From IMG/VR virus record IMGVR_UViG_2563366874_000012: 50,800 bases of DNA; one strand, 5' to 3'. This DNA is from a virus (Duplodnaviria > Heunggongvirae > Uroviricota > Caudoviricetes). Position 1 is the first letter of the stretch. The number at the start of each line of letters is the position of its first letter. The notes beneath the pieces were generated by a model. It had not been told where the DNA came from and did not search any database. It saw only the letters and a program-made list of their open reading frames with translations. Shown here piece after piece: positions 5,765-22,045 of this stretch. The position numbers and the translations under genes were made by a program.

Positions 5765-5838
5765 GTTTTTCTCCTTAATTAAGGTTGAGCGAATACCTGC
5801 CATTTCTGGCATAAATTCAGTTTCGAATAGTCAATTAA

Positions 5839-6009
5839 TTAAAGTTCATGTGCCATCTGGTCTTTTTCGGCACAAGCTTCACTGCAATATTTTCTCGGTT
5901 CGTCTTTTGATAAAATCCCGTGCATGAAGTGAAGCATTCTTTCAATAGCTTTGCTTTCTTCAACGTCTTTTTTGCAAAGGTGGTAAGCACATTTTATTTT
6001 CTTAGTCAT
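5839..6009 (-). CDS. ydaE: Small Cys/His-rich (zinc-binding type) protein YdaE-like
   Basis: 56-aa [59 protein letters not shown]; start overlaps kilR stop by 1 nt (TGATG). Confidence 0.6.
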   Translation of the reverse strand: MTKKIKCAYHLCKKDVEESKAIERMLHFMHGILSKDEPRKYCSEACAEKDQMAHEL

Positions 6010-6230
6010 CACCATGACTCCGCCTTTACAGGTAAACCATCACAACCGAGGAAGACTTTAATCATGCGGTCAGTAATGCATGTTTTTGTGGTCAGGTTAC
6101 GAATATATAGTTTTCGCTTTTTAATATTGTTTGCCGAGGCAATATATGTCCGGCCTTCATGAAGAACATAATCGCCAGGAGTCACACACTGACGTGGTAT
6201 TTCATCAGTTCCGAAGTGATGTGCAATCAT
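6009..6230 (-). CDS. kilR: KilR cell-division inhibitor (FtsZ-targeting kil protein)
   Basis: 73-aa [52 protein letters not shown]...; Rac gene order. Confidence 0.75.
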
Positions 6231-13847: not shown

Positions 13848-13973
13848 ATGAAGCAGCAAAAGGCGATGTTAATCGCCCTGATCGTCATCTGTTTAACCGT
13901 CATAGTGACGGCACTGGTAACGAGGAAAGACCTCTGCGAGGTACGAATCCGAACTGGCAGACGGAGGCTCTGA
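13848..13973 (+). CDS. Hok/Gef-family type I toxin homologue with divergent, short C-terminus (possibly inactive)
   Basis: 41-aa ORF MKQQKAMLIALIVICLTVIVTALVTRKDLCEVRIRTGRRRL*; matches recalled HokD/Gef through ...CEVRIRTG then diverges and stops about 10 codons early; 19-codon upstream ORF ends overlapping the ATG. Confidence 0.55.
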   Translation: MKQQKAMLIALIVICLTVIVTALVTRKDLCEVRIRTGRRRL

Positions 13974-14055: not shown

Positions 14056-14397
14056 CTATTCTTTTTTTGCGGTATAGACTTTTTCGCCTGAGAAGTCTGG
14101 AGCTACCCAAAAGTTAATATTAAACTGAGCATCATCGCTTAGTTCAACACGGTGCCAGTATTGTGGTGGGCTTGTTGCAAAAGCGCCAGCATTAATGACT
14201 ACTTTTATCTCCGGTTCAGTAGCATTCTCATCAGCAAAACCATAATATGTTACAGTACCTTCCATCACGCATAACTGTCCAAAAACACCTGCTGCTGTAT
14301 TATGATGTGTTAATAACGCTGAAGGTACGTTCTCTTTTGTGAAGAACGGAGTTGAGCGTTTGATTACCCAGTCTTTAGGAATTCTCTTGTGTGTCAT
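14056..14397 (-). CDS. YeaR-like DUF1971 (cupin-type) protein
   Basis: 113-aa ORF MTHKRIPKDWVIKRSTPFFTKENVPSALLTHHNTAAGVFGQLCVMEGTVTYYGFADE... aligns by eye with E. coli YeaR (RSTPFW...LSVMHG.V.Y.GYADE...FNIDFFVAPE); GGAGGTGG SD. Confidence 0.6.
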   Translation of the reverse strand: MTHKRIPKDWVIKRSTPFFTKENVPSALLTHHNTAAGVFGQLCVMEGTVTYYGFADENATEPEIKVVINAGAFATSPPQYWHRVELSDDAQFNINFWVAPDFSGEKVYTAKKE

Positions 14398-14765
14398 AAC
14401 CACCTCCCATAAAACATGCATTATAAATGCACCTTTTTGAGGGTTATGTCAAGCTGTTATGAAACACATAATTGATATGTTGATTAGAGGAGAAGATAGA
14501 ATCAATATGGTTGTTTTTCGTATAACTATTTGTTTTACTTTTAGTTTGTGCATTCTGTGTGTTAGGAATAACTTATTAAAGTTTAACTAAAAAATCTCGA
14601 TATAGTCCGCATAGATTACTGTTACTGAATCTTATTGTGTGCATTAGTTGTGTTCTGAAATTTCAATTTAATTACTTATGATATATTTTTAACGATAAAT
14701 GTTTTCCGGGTGAAAGACAGTGGGGGATGAGATAAGCAATATATCATTAATCTTGATTATTTCCA

Positions 14766-14825
14766 GGATGCCTTTACTGTGCATATAAATAAATCATATA
14801 CGCATCAAATAATGTAAAGGCATCC
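14766..14825. repeat. Long inverted repeat (12-bp perfect arms, 36-nt spacer) in AT-rich non-coding island
   Basis: GGATGCCTTTAC (14766-14777) and GTAAAGGCATCC (14814-14825). Confidence 0.6.
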
Positions 14826-15046
14826 TTTTAGATATATCTTATCAAATGTTAATGATTTGAGTGGGAAACATGATTCCAGAAACTAATCATGCGGCTACTT
14901 TATAAAAATAATGCCCATATAAAACAGCCAGCGAAAAGGATTACGGATAAAAAAGGAGCGAGATGTGCATAGTTGTTATTTTCCATGTTTAACCACCTTA
15001 AATAATTGATGATGACGGGATGTGCATCTGTAATGCTTTTGTTGAA

Positions 15047-15081
15047 ATGTTATGATAAAAAAGAACTTTTTCATAACATTA
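15047..15081. repeat. Near-perfect palindrome in AT-rich non-coding island
   Basis: AATGTTATGA-taaaaaagaacttt-TCATAACATT; second GATGTGCAT direct-repeat pair at about 14961 and 15020. Confidence 0.5.
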
Positions 15082-15264
15082 AAATGTAATTTATCTAATC
15101 GTTTTTAATAATAAGTGTTGTATTTCTATCCTTGTATCAGCTATTTGATATGTAGTGTTTGTTCATGTTATGTGGAGCTTTACACCATAGCCAGTTTATT
15201 TATACTTTATTCGTCAGCCTGAACAACTGGCATCTGCTGCACTGCGCCATCGAGAGATTGAGAA

Positions 15265-15864: not shown

Positions 15865-16154
15865 TGGTGGATTTACGTAAAGCGGCGCGGGGGCAGATGT
15901 GCACCGTCAGAATTCCTGGCTACTGCAATCACGATCCGGAAACGTCTGTGCTGGCGCATTACCGACTGGCGGGAACGTGCGGAACAGCGACAAAACCACA
16001 CGATATGCAGGCGGCGATTGCCTGTAGCTCATGCCACGATCTAATCGACGGGCGGGTAAAAACCAGCGATTACACCAAAGAAGAATTACGCCTGATGCAT
16101 GCAGAAGGTGTTTTTCGCACACAAGAAATCTGGAGAAAGGAGGGATATTTGTGA
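15864..16154 (+). CDS. YbcO-like DUF1364 protein (Cys/His metal-binding, putative nuclease)
   Basis: 96-aa ORF MVDLRKAARGQMCTVRIPGYCNHDPETSVLAHYRLAGTCGTATKPHDMQAAIACSSCHD, resembling recalled DLP12 YbcO. Confidence 0.6.
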   Translation: MVDLRKAARGQMCTVRIPGYCNHDPETSVLAHYRLAGTCGTATKPHDMQAAIACSSCHDLIDGRVKTSDYTKEELRLMHAEGVFRTQEIWRKEGYL

Positions 16155-16693
16155 TTTACCCAACGAATACAGGAAAAAGCGGAGAACACCTTCGTCTCGC
16201 CACGCTGGAAAGTGTCTGGATTCAGGGCAAACTGCGTATGTGGGGGCGCTGGTCGTATATTGGCGGTGGCAGGTCAGGAAATATGTTCAATCAGTTGTTG
16301 GCATCCAAAAAATTGACGAAAACAGCCATCAATGAAGCCCTGCGCAGAATGAAAAAAGCGGGAATAGAGAAAGCTGAGCTGGAAGCGTTTTTGCGAGAGA
16401 TGATCAACGGCAAGCAAAAGAGCTGGCTGGCGCATTGTACTGATGCAGAGGCGTTATGTATTGATCGAGTCATAAGTGAGGTGCTGGCAGAGCATCCTGG
16501 ATTGATTAGTGTCCTCCGGCAACGGTATGAAGGACGGGGGATGACTAAGCGCAAAATGGCTGAATTGCTAAATGATGCACATCCTGAGTGGTGTTTTAGC
16601 ACATGCGAAAAGCGAATTGCTAATTGGTTGGCTGTTGCTGAGTATGCCCTATATATTCCCATGCGAGAATCATTTGCTCAAAAAATAGCTTGA
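16151..16693 (+). CDS. Late-gene antiterminator Q-like protein
   Basis: 180-aa ORF from GTG overlapping the upstream stop (GTGA); Cys/His-containing; followed by promoter-like element and short-transcript terminator (PR'/tR' architecture); call is largely positional. Confidence 0.55.
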   Translation: MIYPTNTGKSGEHLRLATLESVWIQGKLRMWGRWSYIGGGRSGNMFNQLLASKKLTKTAINEALRRMKKAGIEKAELEAFLREMINGKQKSWLAHCTDAEALCIDRVISEVLAEHPGLISVLRQRYEGRGMTKRKMAELLNDAHPEWCFSTCEKRIANWLAVAEYALYIPMRESFAQKIA

Positions 16694-16718
16694 TTTTTTA
16701 CGCATAAACTGCTTCAAT
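16690..16718 (+). promoter_or_regulatory. Candidate late promoter PR' (with qut region)
   Basis: TTGATT (16690-16695), 17-nt spacer, TTCAAT (16713-16718), about 60 nt upstream of the tR'-like terminator. Confidence 0.4.
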
Positions 16719-16778
16719 TCCGGTATGCTTCGCAAAGCTGTATCGCGAGGCGAACCAAGCGCATGAACTTTACCAGAA

Positions 16779-16805
16779 CCCGCCATTGAGCGGGTTTTGT
16801 TGTTT
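16779..16805 (+). terminator. Intrinsic terminator (tR'-like)
   Basis: CCCGC-cattga-GCGGG hairpin followed by TTTTGTTGTTT. Confidence 0.55.
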
Positions 16806-16914
16806 CTGGTACTGGTGAACCTGATGTTTCATTTCTGGAGCGCGATTCCTGGCGGAATACCTAGAATCGAGACATTCTGGTAAAATTGTTTTCAGTACAG
16901 GATGTGGAGGTGAG

Positions 16915-17484
16915 ATGAGAGAACTACCTAAAGATTATTTTTTAGGAGTAGATGATGAGCTCGTCGATTATCTTGAAAAACAAGGGGAAGAGACGATACG
17001 AGAGATTCATCTTTCTAACAAAACCAATGTTGAGAATGGATACAAACTTCTGAACATTCAGATTGTTGGAATTGGTTCATCTTTTTTATTGCTGACACAG
17101 AAAACTAATTTCGATTTTCTCACCGCCGGAATTACCTCATTTACATTACTATGGACATGGTGCGCCATTTACTTGGTATGTACTGGTTTATCTGTGAAGG
17201 TTAGGGGCCTGATCAATGCCCCTCCTGATCATATATATCATGAAAAATATAAGGATATGGAGCCCTCGAGCTTTAAAATATTCGCTGATGCAGGATATTT
17301 AGGACCTGATAAGTTATTGCCGCTTATACGAAGGTATCGCCTTGTTGACTTGAGTGATACAGCAAGAGAGTTACTGTTGGAAAATGAGAAAATCCGCACG
17401 AGTCTCGATAAAGCAAGGATGTATACCATCCTTGCTCCGGTAGCGGCGATGTTTATCTCGGCTGTTTTTTTATATGTTCAATGA
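16915..17484 (+). CDS. Uncharacterised membrane protein (moron between Q and lysis genes)
   Basis: 189-aa ORF, GGAGGTGAG SD; hydrophobic segments LLNIQIVGIGSSFLLL, FLTAGITSFTLLWTWCAIYLVCTGL and C-terminal MYTILAPVAAMFISAVFLYVQ; visibly AT-rich. Confidence 0.5.
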   Translation: MRELPKDYFLGVDDELVDYLEKQGEETIREIHLSNKTNVENGYKLLNIQIVGIGSSFLLLTQKTNFDFLTAGITSFTLLWTWCAIYLVCTGLSVKVRGLINAPPDHIYHEKYKDMEPSSFKIFADAGYLGPDKLLPLIRRYRLVDLSDTARELLLENEKIRTSLDKARMYTILAPVAAMFISAVFLYVQ

Positions 17485-17614
17485 CTGAGTCGGCAGAATC
17501 TCCAACAAAAACACGACGTGTAGCAAAGTCTGTAGTACTTTGTGTTGGAGTTGGTTTTGGTGCCACGGGTTGCTGAGGTTTATTTTCACCTTGTGGTTTG
17601 TTTTTTTCAGACAT
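17453..17614 (-). CDS. Possible 53-aa hydrophilic small protein convergent with the moron gene
   Basis: MSEKNKPQGENKPQQPVAPKPTPTQSTTDFATRRVFVGDSADSVIEHIKKQPR; AAGAGG SD 8 nt upstream; 3' end overlaps the moron 3' end by 32 nt. Confidence 0.3.
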   Translation of the reverse strand: MSEKNKPQGENKPQQPVAPKPTPTQSTTDFATRRVFVGDSADSVIEHIKKQPR

Positions 17615-17708
17615 AAAAATCCTCTTTGTTTGAATTGTTACTTTTGGCGATTTAACGATATCAAACACGAGTATATACCGCCAGAAGCTTAATCTGGCAC
17701 TCCATCTG

Positions 17709-17733
17709 GCCCCGGCATGTCCCGGGGCTTTTT
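17709..17733 (+). terminator. Intrinsic terminator upstream of the holin gene
   Basis: GCCCCGG-catgtc-CCGGGGC hairpin followed by TTTTT. Confidence 0.55.
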
Positions 17734-18054
17734 CGTTGTTAGGCTCTGGAAACATCCTCGACTTCTTGTTAGCAAGCCTGAGAGCCTGAATCTTACACTT
17801 AGCACCATCCGAACTCTCGGAGGTGAGGCTTATGAAAATGCACAATGCCCCTCATTCCTGGCCTGACTTACTGGAACTCTTACAAAGTTGGTGGCGTGGA
17901 GATACGCCGCTGGGTGCAGTGGTTATGTCAATTATTATGGCTGGTTTGCGCATTGCCTATTTTGGCGGTGGCGGCGGCTGGAAACGAAAAACGCTTGAGA
18001 TTCTGCTTTGTGGTGCTCTGACGCTGACCTTTGCATCCGCGCTTGGATTTGCCC

Positions 18055-18960
18055 CTATATTTCCAGACATCTGTTATCACTTAACCCATTACAAGCCCGC
18101 TGCCGCAGATATTCCCGTGGCGAGCGATAACCCAGCGCACTATGCGGATGCCATTCGTTATAATGCTCGAACGCCTCTGCAAGGTTCTTTGCTGCCGTTA
18201 ACCCGTCTGGTTTGGGCATGATACTGATGTAGTCACGCTTTATCGTTTTCACGAAGCTCTCTGCTATTCCGTTACTCTCCGGACTCCGCACCGCCGTGTT
18301 CTTCGGTTCAAGTCCCAACATCCGGGCGAACTGGCGTGTTTCATTAGCCCGGTAGCATGAACCATTATCCGTCAGCCACTCCACTGGAGACGACGGAAGA
18401 TCGTTGCCGAAGCGGCGTTCCACCGCTCCCAGCATGACGTCCTGTACTGTTTCACTGTTGAAGCCGCCGGTAGTGACCGCCCAGTGCAGTGCCTCACGAT
18501 CACAGCAGTCCAGCGCGAACGTGACACGCAGTCTCTCTCCGTTATCACAGCAGAACTCGAACCCGTCAGAGCACCATCGCTGATTGCTTTCTTTCACGGC
18601 CACTCTGCCTGTATGTGCCCGTTTCGATGGCGGTACAGCAGGTTTTCGCTCAAGCAACAGCGCATTCTGGCGCATGATCCGGTAAACACGTTTGGCATTG
18701 ATCGCAGGCATACCATCAAGTTCTGCCTGTCTGCGAAGCAGCGCCCATACCCGACGATAACCATACGTTGGCAGCTCTCCGATAACATGGTGTATACGGA
18801 GAAGCACATCCGTATCATCAGTGTGACGACTGCGGCGGCCATCCATCCAGTCATCGGTTCGTCTGAGAATGACGTGCAACTGCGCACGCGACACCCGGAG
18901 ACAACGGCTGACTAAGCTTACTCCCCATCCCCGGGCAATAAGGGCGCGTGCGCTATCCAC
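18055..18960 (-). CDS. insD: IS2 transposase OrfB (InsD)
   Basis: 301-aa [49 protein letters not shown]... with DDE integrase-type core. Confidence 0.9.
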
Positions 18961-19283
18961 TTTTTTGCCCGTCCATATTCAACGGCTTCTTTGAGGAGTT
19001 CATTTTCCATCGTTTTCTTGCCGAGCAGGCGCTGGAGTTCTTTAATCTGCTTCATGGCGGCAGCAAGTTCAGAGGCAGGAACAACCTGTTCTCCGGCGGC
19101 GACAGCAGTAAGACTTCCTTCCTGGTATTGCTTACGCCAGAGAAATAACTGGCTGGCTGCTACACCATGTTGCCGGGCAACGAGGGAGACCGTCATCCCC
19201 GGTTCAAAGCTCTGCTGAACAATTGCGATCTTTTCCTGTGTGGTACGCCGTCTGCGTTTCTCCGGCCCTAAGACATCAATCAT
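18918..19283 (-). CDS. insC: IS2 OrfA (InsC) HTH protein
   Basis: 121-aa [59 protein letters not shown]... Confidence 0.9.
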
Positions 19284-19512
19284 CTGTTCTCCAATGACTA
19301 GTCTAAAAACTAGTATTAAGACTATCACTTATTTAAGTGATATTGGTTGTCTGGAGATTCAGGGGGCCAGTCTAGCGCTTGAGTATGTCGGATGGCCTAA
19401 ATCACTTTCTGTTGCCATTGGTGGTGGGGTGGGGCTGATTGGTGTTGATGCTATTCGTGGTGCGGCAATGAGGGTCATCGGTAACAAGTTCGGTGCCCAT
19501 AAGGAGTAATTA

Positions 19513-19989
19513 ATGCAGACACTTAATTCCCAGCGTAAAGCTTTCCTTGATATGGTGGCATGGTCAGAAGGAACAGATAACGGACGGCAGAAAACCAGAA
19601 ATCACGGTTATGATGTTATTGTCGGTGGCGAACTGTTCACTGATTACTCCGATCACCCCCGCAAACTTGTCACGCTAAATCCGAAACTCAAATCAACAGC
19701 CGCTGGACGTTACCAGCTTCTTTCACGCTGGTGGGATGCCTACCGCAAGCAACTTGGCCTGAAAGATTTTTCTCCAGAAAGTCAGGATGCTGTAGCGCTG
19801 CAGCAGATTAAAGAGCGTGGCGCTTTGCCGATGATTGATCGCGGTGATATCCGTCAGGCTATCGACCGTTGCAGCAATATATGGGCTTCACTGCCGGGCG
19901 CTGGTTATGGTCAGTTCGAGCATAAGGCTGACAGTCTGATTGCAAAATTCAAAGAAGCTGGCGGAACGGTCAGAGAGATTGAGGTATGA
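19513..19989 (+). CDS. Endolysin, lambda R-type lytic transglycosylase
   Basis: 158-aa [56 protein letters not shown]..., near-identical by eye to lambda R; AAGGAG SD. Confidence 0.9.
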
Positions 19990-20450
19990 GCAGAGTAACC
20001 GCGATTATCTCCGCTCTGGTTATCTGCATCGTCGTCTGCCTGTCATGGGGTGTTAATCATTACCGTGATAACGCCATCGCCTACAAAGAACAGCGCGACA
20101 AAAATGCCAGAGAACTGAAGCTGGCGAACGCGGCAATTACTGACATGCAGATGCGTCAGCGTGATGTTGCTGCGCTCGATGCAAAATACACGAAGGAGTT
20201 AGCTGATGCGAAAGCTGAAAATGATGCTCTGCGTGATGATGTTGCCGCTGGTCGTCGTCGGTTGCACATCAAAGCAGTCTGTCAGTCAGTGCGTGAAGCC
20301 ACCACCGCCTCCGGCGTGGATAATGCAGCCTCCCCCCGACTGGCAGACACCGCTGAACGGGATTATTTCACCCTCCGGGAACGACTGGTAATGATGCAGG
20401 CCCAACTTGAAGGTGCTCAGCAATACATAACCGAGCAGTGTTTAAAGTAA
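19986..20450 (+). CDS. Rz inner-membrane spanin
   Basis: 154-aa [48 protein letters not shown]...; start overlaps R stop (ATGA). Confidence 0.85.
20206..20391 (+). CDS. Rz1 outer-membrane lipoprotein spanin, embedded in Rz in the +1 frame
   Basis: 61-aa [64 protein letters not shown] with lipobox LVVVGC and Pro-rich core. Confidence 0.8.
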
Positions 20451-20587
20451 AATCTTAACTACAATATGATTCATTTTGATGATTGTTTCATAAGGAACAG
20501 TGAAGTAAGATCTAAGAGGAGTTAAATTTTATACAGTATAATCATAATATTGCAGCAAGGTGGTTATAATTGAAAGAATATTTAGAT

Positions 20588-22045
20588 ATGAATACATCTC
20601 ATGTAAGAGTTGTTACTCATATGTGTGGGTTCCTGGTTTGGCTCTATAGTCTTTCAATGTTGCCACCAATGGTTGTAGCATTGTTTTATAAAGAAAAAAG
20701 CCTGTTCGTTTTCTTTATAACTTTCGTTATATTTTTTTGCATTGGTGGCGGAGCGTGGTATACAACTAAGAAATCTGGCATTCAATTACGTACCCGTGAT
20801 GGGTTTATTATAATTGTAATGTTTTGGATTTTGTTTTCTGTTATTAGTGCATTCCCTTTATGGATTGACTCAGAACTTAATTTAACGTTCATTGATGCTC
20901 TGTTTGAAGGGGTTTCTGGAATAACAACAACAGGAGCAACTGTAATTGATGATGTTAGTTCATTACCTCGGGCATATTTGTACTATCGGTCACAGTTAAA
21001 TTTTATAGGTGGTTTAGGAGTTATTGTTCTGGCGGTTGCTGTATTGCCATTATTGGGTATTGGTGGTGCAAAGCTTTATCAGTCAGAAATGCCGGGGCCA
21101 TTTAAGGATGACAAACTCACTCCCCGCCTGGCCGATACGTCACGGACACTGTGGATAACTTATTCTTTATTAGGTATTGCTTGTATTGTCTGTTATAGAC
21201 TTGCAGGAATGCCTTTGTTTGATGCTATTTGTCACGGGATTTCCACAGTTTCGCTTGGTGGTTTCTCAACTCATAGCGAGAGTATCGGATATTTTAATAA
21301 CTATTTGGTTGAGCTGGTGGCTGGTTCTTTTTCCCTGCTATCGGCTTTCAACTTCACTCTTTGGTATATTGTTATTAGCAGGAAAACGATAAAACCTTTA
21401 ATCAGAGATATTGAACTTCGTTTCTTTCTGTTAATAGCCTTAGGGGTGATCATTGTTACCTCTTTCCAGGTCTGGCATATAGGTATGTATGACTTGCATG
21501 GAAGTTTTATTCATTCGTTTTTTCTTGCCAGCTCCATGCTCACTGATAATGGTTTAGCTACGCAGGATTATGCAAGTTGGCCCACGCACACGATAGTGTT
21601 TTTGCTGTTGTCAAGTTTCTTTGGGGGATGTATAGGTTCAACTTGTGGTGGAATTAAGTCACTTCGATTTCTTATACTTTTCAAACAAAGCAAACACGAG
21701 ATAAATCAGCTTTCTCATCCCAGAGCGTTGTTGAGTGTAAATGTAGGAGGGAAGATAGTTACAGATCGTGTAATGAGGTCTGTATGGAGTTTCTTTTTTC
21801 TTTATACTCTCTTCACGGTGTTTTTTATACTGGTGTTAAATGGTATGGGATATGATTTTCTTACATCATTTGCAACAGTGGCTGCATGTATTAATAATAT
21901 GGGATTAGGTTTTGGGGCTACTGCATCGTCATTCGGAGTGCTTAATGACATTGCAAAATGTTTAATGTGCATAGCTATGATTCTTGGTCGCCTTGAAATT
22001 TATCCTGTTATTATATTGTTTTCAGGTTTTTTTTGGCGCTCCTAA
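20588..22045 (+). CDS. trkG: TrkG potassium uptake membrane protein (Rac-encoded TrkH paralogue)
   Basis: 485-aa polytopic membrane protein MNTSHVRVVTHMCGFLVWLYSLSMLPPMVVALFYKEKS... with repeated TrkH-type pore segments; AT-rich; TATAAT at 20537-20542 upstream. Confidence 0.9.
   Translation: MNTSHVRVVTHMCGFLVWLYSLSMLPPMVVALFYKEKSLFVFFITFVIFFCIGGGAWYTTKKSGIQLRTRDGFIIIVMFWILFSVISAFPLWIDSELNLTFIDALFEGVSGITTTGATVIDDVSSLPRAYLYYRSQLNFIGGLGVIVLAVAVLPLLGIGGAKLYQSEMPGPFKDDKLTPRLADTSRTLWITYSLLGIACIVCYRLAGMPLFDAICHGISTVSLGGFSTHSESIGYFNNYLVELVAGSFSLLSAFNFTLWYIVISRKTIKPLIRDIELRFFLLIALGVIIVTSFQVWHIGMYDLHGSFIHSFFLASSMLTDNGLATQDYASWPTHTIVFLLLSSFFGGCIGSTCGGIKSLRFLILFKQSKHEINQLSHPRALLSVNVGGKIVTDRVMRSVWSFFFLYTLFTVFFILVLNGMGYDFLTSFATVAACINNMGLGFGATASSFGVLNDIAKCLMCIAMILGRLEIYPVIILFSGFFWRS

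Follow-up and report, generated by a model that had tools for sequence, protein, structure and literature searches.

A mobile cassette that pairs a predicted membrane protein with a convergent micro-protein is a candidate phage-defense or toxin-antidote module of Rac-like prophages and other mobile elements

The window that we analyzed, a stretch of 50,800 nucleotides (nt) from IMG/VR virus record IMGVR_UViG_2563366874_000012, is a Rac-like lambdoid prophage of Escherichia coli, and the slot between its late-gene antiterminator Q and its holin holds a cassette of two convergent, overlapping genes that is closed by an intrinsic terminator. The large gene (16915-17484, plus strand) encodes a predicted inner-membrane protein of 189 amino acids (aa), and the small gene (17453-17614, minus strand) encodes a 53-aa micro-protein rich in proline, glutamine, and lysine (MSEKNKPQGENKPQQPVAPKPTPTQSTTDFATRRVFVGDSADSVIEHIKKQPR). 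An earlier interpretation of this DNA, hereafter the sequence-only reading, had described the slot as carrying a single cargo gene; it overlooked the convergent gene at 17614-17453, and a single-gene moron view of the slot hides the feature likeliest to explain its regulation. The genomic contexts of the cassette mark it as a mobile accessory unit (moron) of two genes that travels on temperate phages and on mobile elements of other kinds. As lambdoid Q-to-S cargo with a probable part in conflict, it is of a familiar kind, but this specific two-gene unit has not been described before, and comparison across lineages makes it a good candidate for a new phage-defense or toxin-antidote module. Our tentative proposal, which we hold with less than even confidence, is that the large protein is a cyclase-independent membrane effector restrained by the micro-protein or by its antisense transcript, the two genes together acting in abortive infection or as a toxin and its antidote.

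The sequence-only reading had called a 189-aa open reading frame (ORF) at 16915-17484 with a strong ribosome-binding site, and both calls are borne out. The ORF is present in the ORF list, a Shine-Dalgarno (SD) sequence, GGAGG, can be read at 16906-16910 on the plus strand, 4 nt before the ATG, and the protein matches PHROG 11870 over its full length (E = 4.5e-107). We found 104 homologs at E ≤ 1e-3, mostly of exactly 189 aa and with 24 invariant alignment columns, so 16915-17484 is no chance ORF. The family comprises 101 clusters (at 50% identity) in 1.84 billion proteins, and its Enterobacterales members are almost always exactly 189 aa long. The gene had also been described as strongly AT-rich. 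It does deviate from its flanks, although the wording overstated the difference: the large ORF has a G+C content of 38.8% and the cassette 40.9%, compared with 47-52% for the Q, holin, lysozyme, and Rz genes and 47.4% for the whole window. The statement that the protein could be placed in no characterized family held up in our profile and structure searches, which gave only PHROG 11870, a group annotated as "unknown function," and no Pfam, NCBIfam, or PADLOC match. A search of BFVD and the PDB with the predicted structure returned no significant match, only generic long-helix bundles, and a sequence-profile search of the PDB returned no match below E = 0.09. Neither an enzymatic domain nor a cyclic-nucleotide-binding domain was detected in the 189-aa protein.

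The Kyte-Doolittle profile and an AlphaFold2 model (mean predicted local distance difference test [pLDDT] score, 82; predicted template modeling [pTM] score, 0.63) agree on hydrophobic helices at residues ~47-62, 68-92, and 168-188, in keeping with the two central helices and the C-terminal helix that had been read from the sequence. The model contains helices at residues 14-62, 68-92, and 134-188. The first of these ends as a transmembrane (TM) segment, TM1, and a 5-residue loop connects it to TM2 (68-92); about 40 residues of lower confidence follow, and helix 134-188 then ends as TM3. The TM hairpin (~47-62 plus 68-92) carries an invariant IVGIGSSFLLLTQ motif, and the ~75-residue region between TM2 and TM3 contains an RRYRL motif. 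The N-terminal 46 residues are acidic, and residues 93-167 include 13 lysines and arginines. By the positive-inside rule, the N terminus and the central region are therefore likely to lie inside and the C terminus outside, which would leave the bulk of the protein in the cytoplasm. In the family alignment, the most conserved residues are polar or small and sit in the TM hairpin (G52, G54, S55, S56, T61, Q62, W80, and C83), as expected for an oligomeric pore or interface.

The small gene runs toward the large gene, with which it shares 32 nt (17453-17484) at the latter's 3' end, and it has its own SD sequence (AAAGAGGA on the minus strand, 17620-17627, as read from the sequence). Its product matches PHROG 14506 (E = 6.3e-33), again annotated as "unknown function," and has no Pfam, NCBIfam, or PADLOC match. 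In RefSeq, this frame is annotated from a start farther upstream, and across genomes this gene is often overlooked or given the wrong start. Several observations bear on whether the small ORF is translated. A GGAG-type site before its ATG is kept in all enterobacterial loci, and SD sequence and ATG are conserved across loci more generally. When differences were counted by codon position in the minus-strand frame (positions 1/2/3), we obtained 573/495/941 among enterobacterial loci and 183/186/306 among distant loci; the core IPQPxPxR[RK][ED] never changes in the distant loci, although its codons differ synonymously at the third position. Given the third-position excess, together with an invariant core that accumulates synonymous changes, the substitution pattern indicates that the small ORF codes for a protein under purifying selection at the amino acid level. 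Distant micro-proteins with the invariant core P[VT]IPQPxPxR[RK][ED] are encoded on the minus strand at L024:4449-4544, L026:4437-4532, and L028:3093-3206, and further ones at L017:5479-5598, L019:5473-5595, and L021:5599-5685, also on the minus strand.

The two genes travel together. A small convergent ORF at the 3' end of the large gene was present in 19 of the 19 lineages that we examined: Escherichia, Leclercia, two of Trabulsiella, three of Serratia, Pantoea, Morganella, Yersinia, phage pPE4, a Pasteurella plasmid, Burkholderia, Sulfuritalea, three metagenomic elements, a Tn7-like element, and the prophage carrying the family member P0130. The overlap measures 20-65 nt across these lineages, except that the Pasteurella pair merely abuts. 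A micro-protein profile recovered 76 clusters from the same genera as the large protein, all annotated as "hypothetical" and none with a Pfam domain. Lengths across the family are ~30-55 aa. The C-terminal part of the window micro-protein reads RRVFVGDSAD and is followed by a basic tail; the Pasteurella micro-protein, which contains KPQPTPSKPQQP, VFIGDSVD, and KKK in that order, has both the KPQPTP motif and the IGDSxD motif and so bridges two micro-protein subtypes. AlphaFold2 predicted nearly no secondary structure for the window micro-protein (pTM, 0.21), and this low-structure model suggests a disordered peptide that would act via short linear motifs. In Leclercia adecarboxylata (L014:6001-6702), the large gene carries two frameshifts while the micro-protein gene is intact and 92% identical to that of the window. 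This pattern fits the loss of a toxin, as a single anecdotal case.

Where the cassette is found also tells us about its nature. At least 80% of the segment 16700-17830 is present in 223 of 5426 complete E. coli genomes (~4%), an ordinary frequency, and these 223 are drawn from 1445 genomes that match some part of it. The large protein occurs in only 5 of 50,697 deposited phage records and in two plasmid records, and many prophages of Klebsiella, Citrobacter, Serratia, Yersinia, Salmonella, and Providencia carry the cassette. A locus search with the close family alignment returned only 8 loci. In enterobacterial loci, the cassette always lies between the late antiterminator and the lysis genes; the antiterminator upstream belongs to any of three unrelated Q families (DUF1133, Phage_antitermQ, and P22 gp23-type Antiterm), and the holin downstream to at least three unrelated types (lambda-S-type, class-II-type, and other). 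The slot itself is variable. vB_EcoS-473R12 carries the cassette there, and vB_EcoS-683R6, a Rac-like phage with the same Q, ybcO, and trkG, holds tRNA-Thr, tRNA-Gly, and two other genes in its place. This difference in content, along with the deviating base composition, upholds the earlier view that the slot carries horizontally acquired cargo.

Distant relatives (20-35% identity) occupy positions other than the Q-to-holin slot. A Burkholderia prophage has its relative between a Q-like gene and the terminase, a metagenomic phage beside BrnT/BrnA and a HicB-like antitoxin gene, and the Pasteurella plasmid next to RelE and its antidote; another relative adjoins Gp49/HTH. In a Tn7-like metagenomic transposon (L024:1-4658), the pair leads the cargo, placed right behind two tniQ genes and an AAA_22 (TnsC-like) gene. 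The P0130 pair (L032:5001-5567, with its partner at L032:5538-5699 on the minus strand) lies on the downstream side of cI in a lambdoid prophage, a place comparable to that of rexAB. No lysis genes lie near the cassette in L017, L024, or L032, and the Tn7-like locus is without any phage genes. All of these places are ones where accessory genes or cargo sit, several being characteristic of genes that a resident element expresses; their variety speaks against a function bound to one given holin or to lysis as such. Two side observations concern the enterobacterial loci. In Serratia marcescens-type loci L002-L004, an extra 74-aa plus-strand gene with its own terminator lies between the cassette terminator and the holin (5829-6053), a gene not present in the window. 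Locus L031 (PP818812.1, 13613-20173) is from vB_Apl-pPE4, deposited as an Actinobacillus pleuropneumoniae phage; its Q-end/tR' sequence is 96% identical to that of the window at the DNA level, its nin/Q/lysis region is E. coli-like, and the stated host is perhaps doubtful.

The cassette is followed by an intrinsic terminator on the plus strand (17708-17734), in which the terminator scan found an 8-bp G+C stem (17708-17729) and then TTTTT, with a stable fold. The GC hairpin and T5 tract of the sequence-only reading were therefore correctly identified. The related idea that the large ORF is insulated by its own terminator needs amending: a conserved terminator does follow, but it begins ~225 nt after the large gene's stop, with the small gene in the interval, and hence it bounds the two-gene pair and not the ORF alone. 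There is no U-tract on the minus strand. A second hairpin, GCCAGA-N7-TCTGGC (17680-17698, plus strand), precedes it in both the single-sequence fold and an RNAalifold consensus of eight loci, and the two hairpins fold jointly at -25.5 kcal/mol (z = -3.45). Across these eight loci, both sides of the pair have changed, with pairing retained, in 6 of the 9 terminator stem pairs and in 8 of 15 pairs over both hairpins, and similarity between loci stops directly after the T-tract. This covariation indicates that the terminator is conserved both as a structure and in its position. Only transcription of the cassette by unmodified polymerase would require a terminator conserved in this way. A search of 16500-18000 against Rfam gave no RNA family.

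A link to effectors of known function runs through P0130, which shares 31% identity with the window protein over 170 residues (E = 1e-18) and has the same convergent small partner. P0130 matches PADLOC model PDLC02364, for the PycTM protein of Pycsar (an antiphage resistance system built on a pyrimidine cyclase), with E = 1.5e-8 (residues 17-182 against model positions 7-152 of 160). It also matches model PDLC00700, for the "2TM effector" of the cyclic oligonucleotide-based antiphage signaling system (CBASS), with E = 4e-5 (model positions 23-168 of 173), and a further sequence, P0127, has a weak match to another PycTM model (E = 0.0073). PycTM has been described as the Pycsar receptor, a membrane-spanning pore that disrupts membrane integrity and so brings about abortive infection (PMC11224242). 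Abortive infection was among the functions that the sequence-only reading had listed, and this remote match via P0130 lends it some support, although the window protein itself is unmatched. No gene for a pyrimidine cyclase or for a cGAS/DncV-like nucleotidyltransferase (CD-NTase) or other nucleotidyltransferase is adjacent to the pair in any of the 19 loci. The family is thus not to be filed as a Pycsar or CBASS component; it may only work like their membrane effectors.

Under our proposal, the 189-aa protein would be a latent pore-forming or depolarizing effector, and the small gene would stand in for the activating nucleotide signal of the effector's Pycsar and CBASS cousins. With convergent, overlapping genes, each full-length transcript is necessarily antisense to its counterpart, and the effector could be restrained by the micro-protein, by antisense pairing together with the collision of convergent transcription, or by both. 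Loss of the labile small partner would then release the effector, the membrane potential would collapse, and the infection would be aborted. The trigger could be, for example, the host shut-off that a superinfecting phage imposes, or strong rightward transcription driven by Q once the prophage is induced. The plus-strand terminator would keep cassette transcripts made by unmodified polymerase out of the holin, and Q-modified polymerase, which reads through terminators in established lambda biology, would continue past it. What favors this proposal is the pairing in all 19 lineages, the coding small ORF, the mobility of the cassette, the kinship of P0130, the conserved TM residues, the terminator, and the Leclercia case; taken together, we think that they make it possible rather than probable.

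Several points weigh against it. The window protein, the family consensus, and 49 of the 51 scanned members have no PADLOC PycTM or 2TM match, and P0130 itself scores only 16.1 bits against Pfam PF18967 (PycTM), for a cut-off of 27.2, with a single TM helix aligned. Kinship with these effectors passes through one member and transitivity, and hydrophobic bias could inflate the scores, so that, with the cyclase absent as well, the PycTM link is suggestive and not established. The toxicity, the interaction of the two proteins, and the anti-phage phenotype are all features that we infer. In addition, neither gene has a consensus sigma-70 promoter: no convincing -35/-10 pair was found, by eye or by scan. 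Finally, in Pantoea and Morganella, the ATG of the large gene comes ~30 nt after tR', where the gene is perhaps only a Q-dependent late gene, and such a start fits a role in the lytic cycle better than a defense expressed in the lysogen.

Candidate control sites flank both genes. A conserved -10-like box, TGGTAAAAT, lies at 16878-16886 on the plus strand and is an extended -10 in this window only. Either GGTAAAAT or GGTAAGAT is found at the matching distance (~30 nt) before the ATG in the window and in L002/L003, L009-L012, and L031; L013 has a degenerate version of the box, and L005 and L008 have none. The GGTAAAAT box is shared by most enterobacterial loci and usually stands just after a terminator, and it has no -35 partner and gave no site in the promoter scan. 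The TGGTAAAAT box may be the cassette's own promoter, as a candidate read from this conservation. Upstream of the small gene, a nine-locus alignment revealed a conserved block (TTGATATCGTTAAATCGCC on the minus strand, 17646-17665) that could serve as a promoter or operator, although it fits no sigma-70 consensus convincingly and gave no site in the promoter scan. We also considered this block as a LexA box or a palindromic operator and rejected both, given that its halves are not complementary.

The starting point so close to tR' suggests another explanation, in which the Q-dependent late transcript begins with the large gene, whose product tunes lysis timing via the membrane potential or, late in infection, blocks superinfection or losses to re-adsorption; the small gene would then damp the large gene until Q-driven transcription overrides it. 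In every enterobacterial locus, tR' and the holin are the direct neighbors of the cassette, the Pantoea and Morganella loci leave no box and no space for a promoter of its own between tR' and the ATG, and both terminators would be passable by Q-modified polymerase. We nevertheless consider a late accessory function rather unlikely. A specific antiholin role is hard to reconcile with at least three unrelated holin families alongside the cassette, relatives exist without nearby lysis genes (in the Burkholderia Q-to-terminase, cI-downstream, and Tn7-like cargo positions), and searches of Pfam and PHROG gave no similarity to holin, antiholin, or spanin families. Moreover, a conserved terminator after the cassette would be purposeless for a purely Q-dependent gene. 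The holin diversity and the loci without lysis genes likewise disfavor the lysis modulator that the sequence-only reading had offered as one possible function.

The pair could also be an addiction module with no anti-phage role, in which a membrane toxin and a convergent antitoxin (a protein, an antisense RNA as in bsrG/SR4, or both) stabilize the mobile element that carries them. Addiction and abortive infection are not mutually exclusive, and this explanation overlaps the restrained-effector proposal; as a function in its own right, we judge it unlikely. Strict linkage with a convergent 3' overlap on phages, a plasmid, and a transposon speaks for it, as do the toxin-antitoxin pairs that adjoin the cassette and the Leclercia locus with its frameshifted large gene beside an intact small gene. 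However, selection acts on the supposed antitoxin as a protein, which sets it apart from type I antitoxin RNAs, the supposed toxin of 189 aa is far bigger than type I toxins, and neither protein matches a toxin-antitoxin family in Pfam, NCBIfam, or PADLOC.

Non-lethal superinfection exclusion, in which the large protein would block DNA entry or a receptor in the manner of SieA, Imm, HK97 gp15, or Cor, with the micro-protein as a cofactor or regulator, appears quite improbable to us. It would suit a prophage inner-membrane protein that has no enzymatic domain and occupies accessory slots, among them the one next to cI where exclusion genes expressed in the lysogen are typically found. Against this, comparison with known exclusion and abortive-infection membrane proteins (SieA, SieB, Imm, Cor, and RexB) gave no match in Pfam, annotated PHROGs, NCBIfam, or PADLOC and no significant one by structure in BFVD or the PDB, and the sole remote similarity of the family is to lethal pore-type effectors. 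The predicted outside part amounts to a ~5-residue loop and the C terminus, scant surface for an incoming tail or ejection apparatus, and the cargo genes of Tn7-like elements are usually generic defenses. A lysogenic-conversion factor for host physiology without phage conflict, for instance a small channel or regulator of transport, or a factor for envelope stress, is very improbable: the neighboring Rac cargo trkG encodes a potassium transporter and a few distant members give weak sub-threshold matches to membrane-stress-associated families, e.g., Rv2743c, but those matches are below the cut-off and cover TM helices only, and strict pairing with an antisense micro-gene and mobile carriage beside toxin-antitoxin genes would be unexpected of a housekeeping-type function.

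Such sub-threshold Pfam matches (8xMP, DUF6249, Rv2743c, YLATT, and PycTM at 0.016), obtained in a scan of 51 divergent members, two consensus sequences, and selected members, were confined to TM helices, and we rejected them as noise. A literature search on 8xMP found no relevant paper. Searches for these proteins, their PHROGs, or their phages found nothing functional, the sole paper that names the phages being an in-silico prophage survey, and the literature that we searched on morons, Q-slot cargo, and defense hotspots contained nothing on this family.

Both proteins are annotated merely as "hypothetical," and neither is in the defense catalog that we searched (PADLOC). If the cassette is an abortive-infection or toxin-antidote module, it would be a compact addition of ~0.9 kb to the prophage defense repertoire, it would imply that pore effectors of the PycTM/2TM type can be controlled by means other than a nucleotide signal, and it would offer a clean example of a protein-coding antisense partner whose protein and RNA roles are genetically separable. 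The broader claim that the pair represents an unrecognized defense or toxin-antidote class, with a PycTM-like effector freed from cyclic nucleotides, governed by a convergent disordered micro-protein, and spread by lambdoid prophages, Tn7-like transposons, and plasmids across the Gamma- and Betaproteobacteria, seems to us doubtful at present. More speculatively, the invariant core of the micro-protein recalls the ribosome-targeting honeybee peptide apidaecin (GNNRPVYIPQPRPPHPRL), a resemblance that we assume may be a coincidence in proline-rich sequence. By analogy, the P[VT]IPQPxPxRR[ED] core might act in or on the ribosome as a sensor of translation state, with stalling setting the extent of the antisense transcript. 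If this were true, the health of host translation would be coupled to effector release.

The immediate surroundings of the cassette are those of a lambdoid late region, and its placement between Q/tR' and the holin agrees with the sequence-only reading. The gene order is a DUF1367 gene, a ybcO-like gene, the DUF1133/antiterminator-Q-like gene, the cassette, a lambda-S-type holin, lysozyme, Rz with embedded Rz1, and trkG. The upstream edge of the slot is a late-gene antiterminator Q of the DUF1133 type (16151-16693, plus strand), identified by Pfam DUF1133 (E = 1.4e-107) and Phage_antitermQ (E = 3.4e-6) and assigned to PHROG 753, "anti-termination protein Q-like." Next comes a tR'-like intrinsic terminator (16774-16809, plus strand; fold, -16.2 kcal/mol; z = -3.3), an equivalent of which precedes the cassette in most related loci. 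This terminator came from the terminator and promoter scan, in which site counts were no higher than in shuffled sequence; upstream of it, the sole promoter-like site in the scan is at 16628-16657, inside the 3' end of Q. The downstream edge is the 5' part of the lambda-S-type holin (17823-18046, plus strand; start at 17823 or 17832; Pfam Phage_holin_3_1, E = 1.2e-13). An IS2 element (insC/insD, minus strand) splits the holin gene at ~18046-19383, with the break point placed by comparison with the uninterrupted locus L001, and on this evidence the present prophage copy should be lysis-defective. In several complete E. coli genomes, the surrounding 15 kb is 100% identical save for the ~1.3-kb segment that is IS2, and the same prophage elsewhere in E. 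coli has an intact holin.

Other features lie elsewhere in the region. Upstream of the nin-like genes lies a Hok/Gef-family toxin ORF (13848-13973), followed by a DUF1971 gene on the minus strand (14056-14421) and by a very AT-rich stretch in the 14500-15250 region (28-32% G+C). Downstream, the Rz1-type o-spanin is a 61-aa proline-rich lipoprotein ORF (20206-20391) within Rz (19986-20450), a classical layout unrelated to the cassette, and trkG (20570-22045), at 37.8% G+C, comes after Rz/Rz1.

Several known systems resemble the cassette in part. Like the PycTM and CBASS 2TM (SLATT-like) effectors, the large protein falls in a size range of ~160-190 aa, has a cytoplasmic helix that runs into a TM hairpin, ends in a C-terminal helix, and is carried on mobile elements; unlike them, the family has a third, C-terminal TM helix and a convergent proline-rich micro-protein partner that is absent from those systems. 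The cassette shares the Q/tR'-holin slot with other lambdoid Q-to-S morons (stxAB in Stx phages, nmpC in DLP12, and csp genes in Qin), and, like these and Hendrix-type morons in general, it varies in presence among similar phages, has a lower G+C content than its flanks, and has its own terminator. However, the products are unrelated, the cassette's own promoter is only a candidate, and two convergent, overlapping genes take the place of the simple promoter-gene-terminator unit.

Among prophage membrane proteins, SieB of P22 and lambda aborts superinfecting phages, and the Esc/sas element that protects the prophage from its own SieB involves an antisense transcript. The likeness to our cassette lies in the combination of a prophage membrane protein with an element involving an antisense transcript, and a likeness to RexAB lies in the position of the P0130 relative, downstream of cI, which rexAB holds in lambda. 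In contrast to both, the antisense partner described here is a separate protein-coding gene at the 3' end, and no Pfam or PHROG link connects the proteins. The type I systems with a 3' overlap (bsrG/SR4 and txpA/RatA of B. subtilis) share with the cassette both a prophage location and the convergent 3' overlap of a membrane-toxin gene with its regulator. Their toxins are ~30-60 aa and their antitoxins are non-coding RNAs, whereas the cassette combines a protein of 189 aa with an antisense gene that itself codes for protein.

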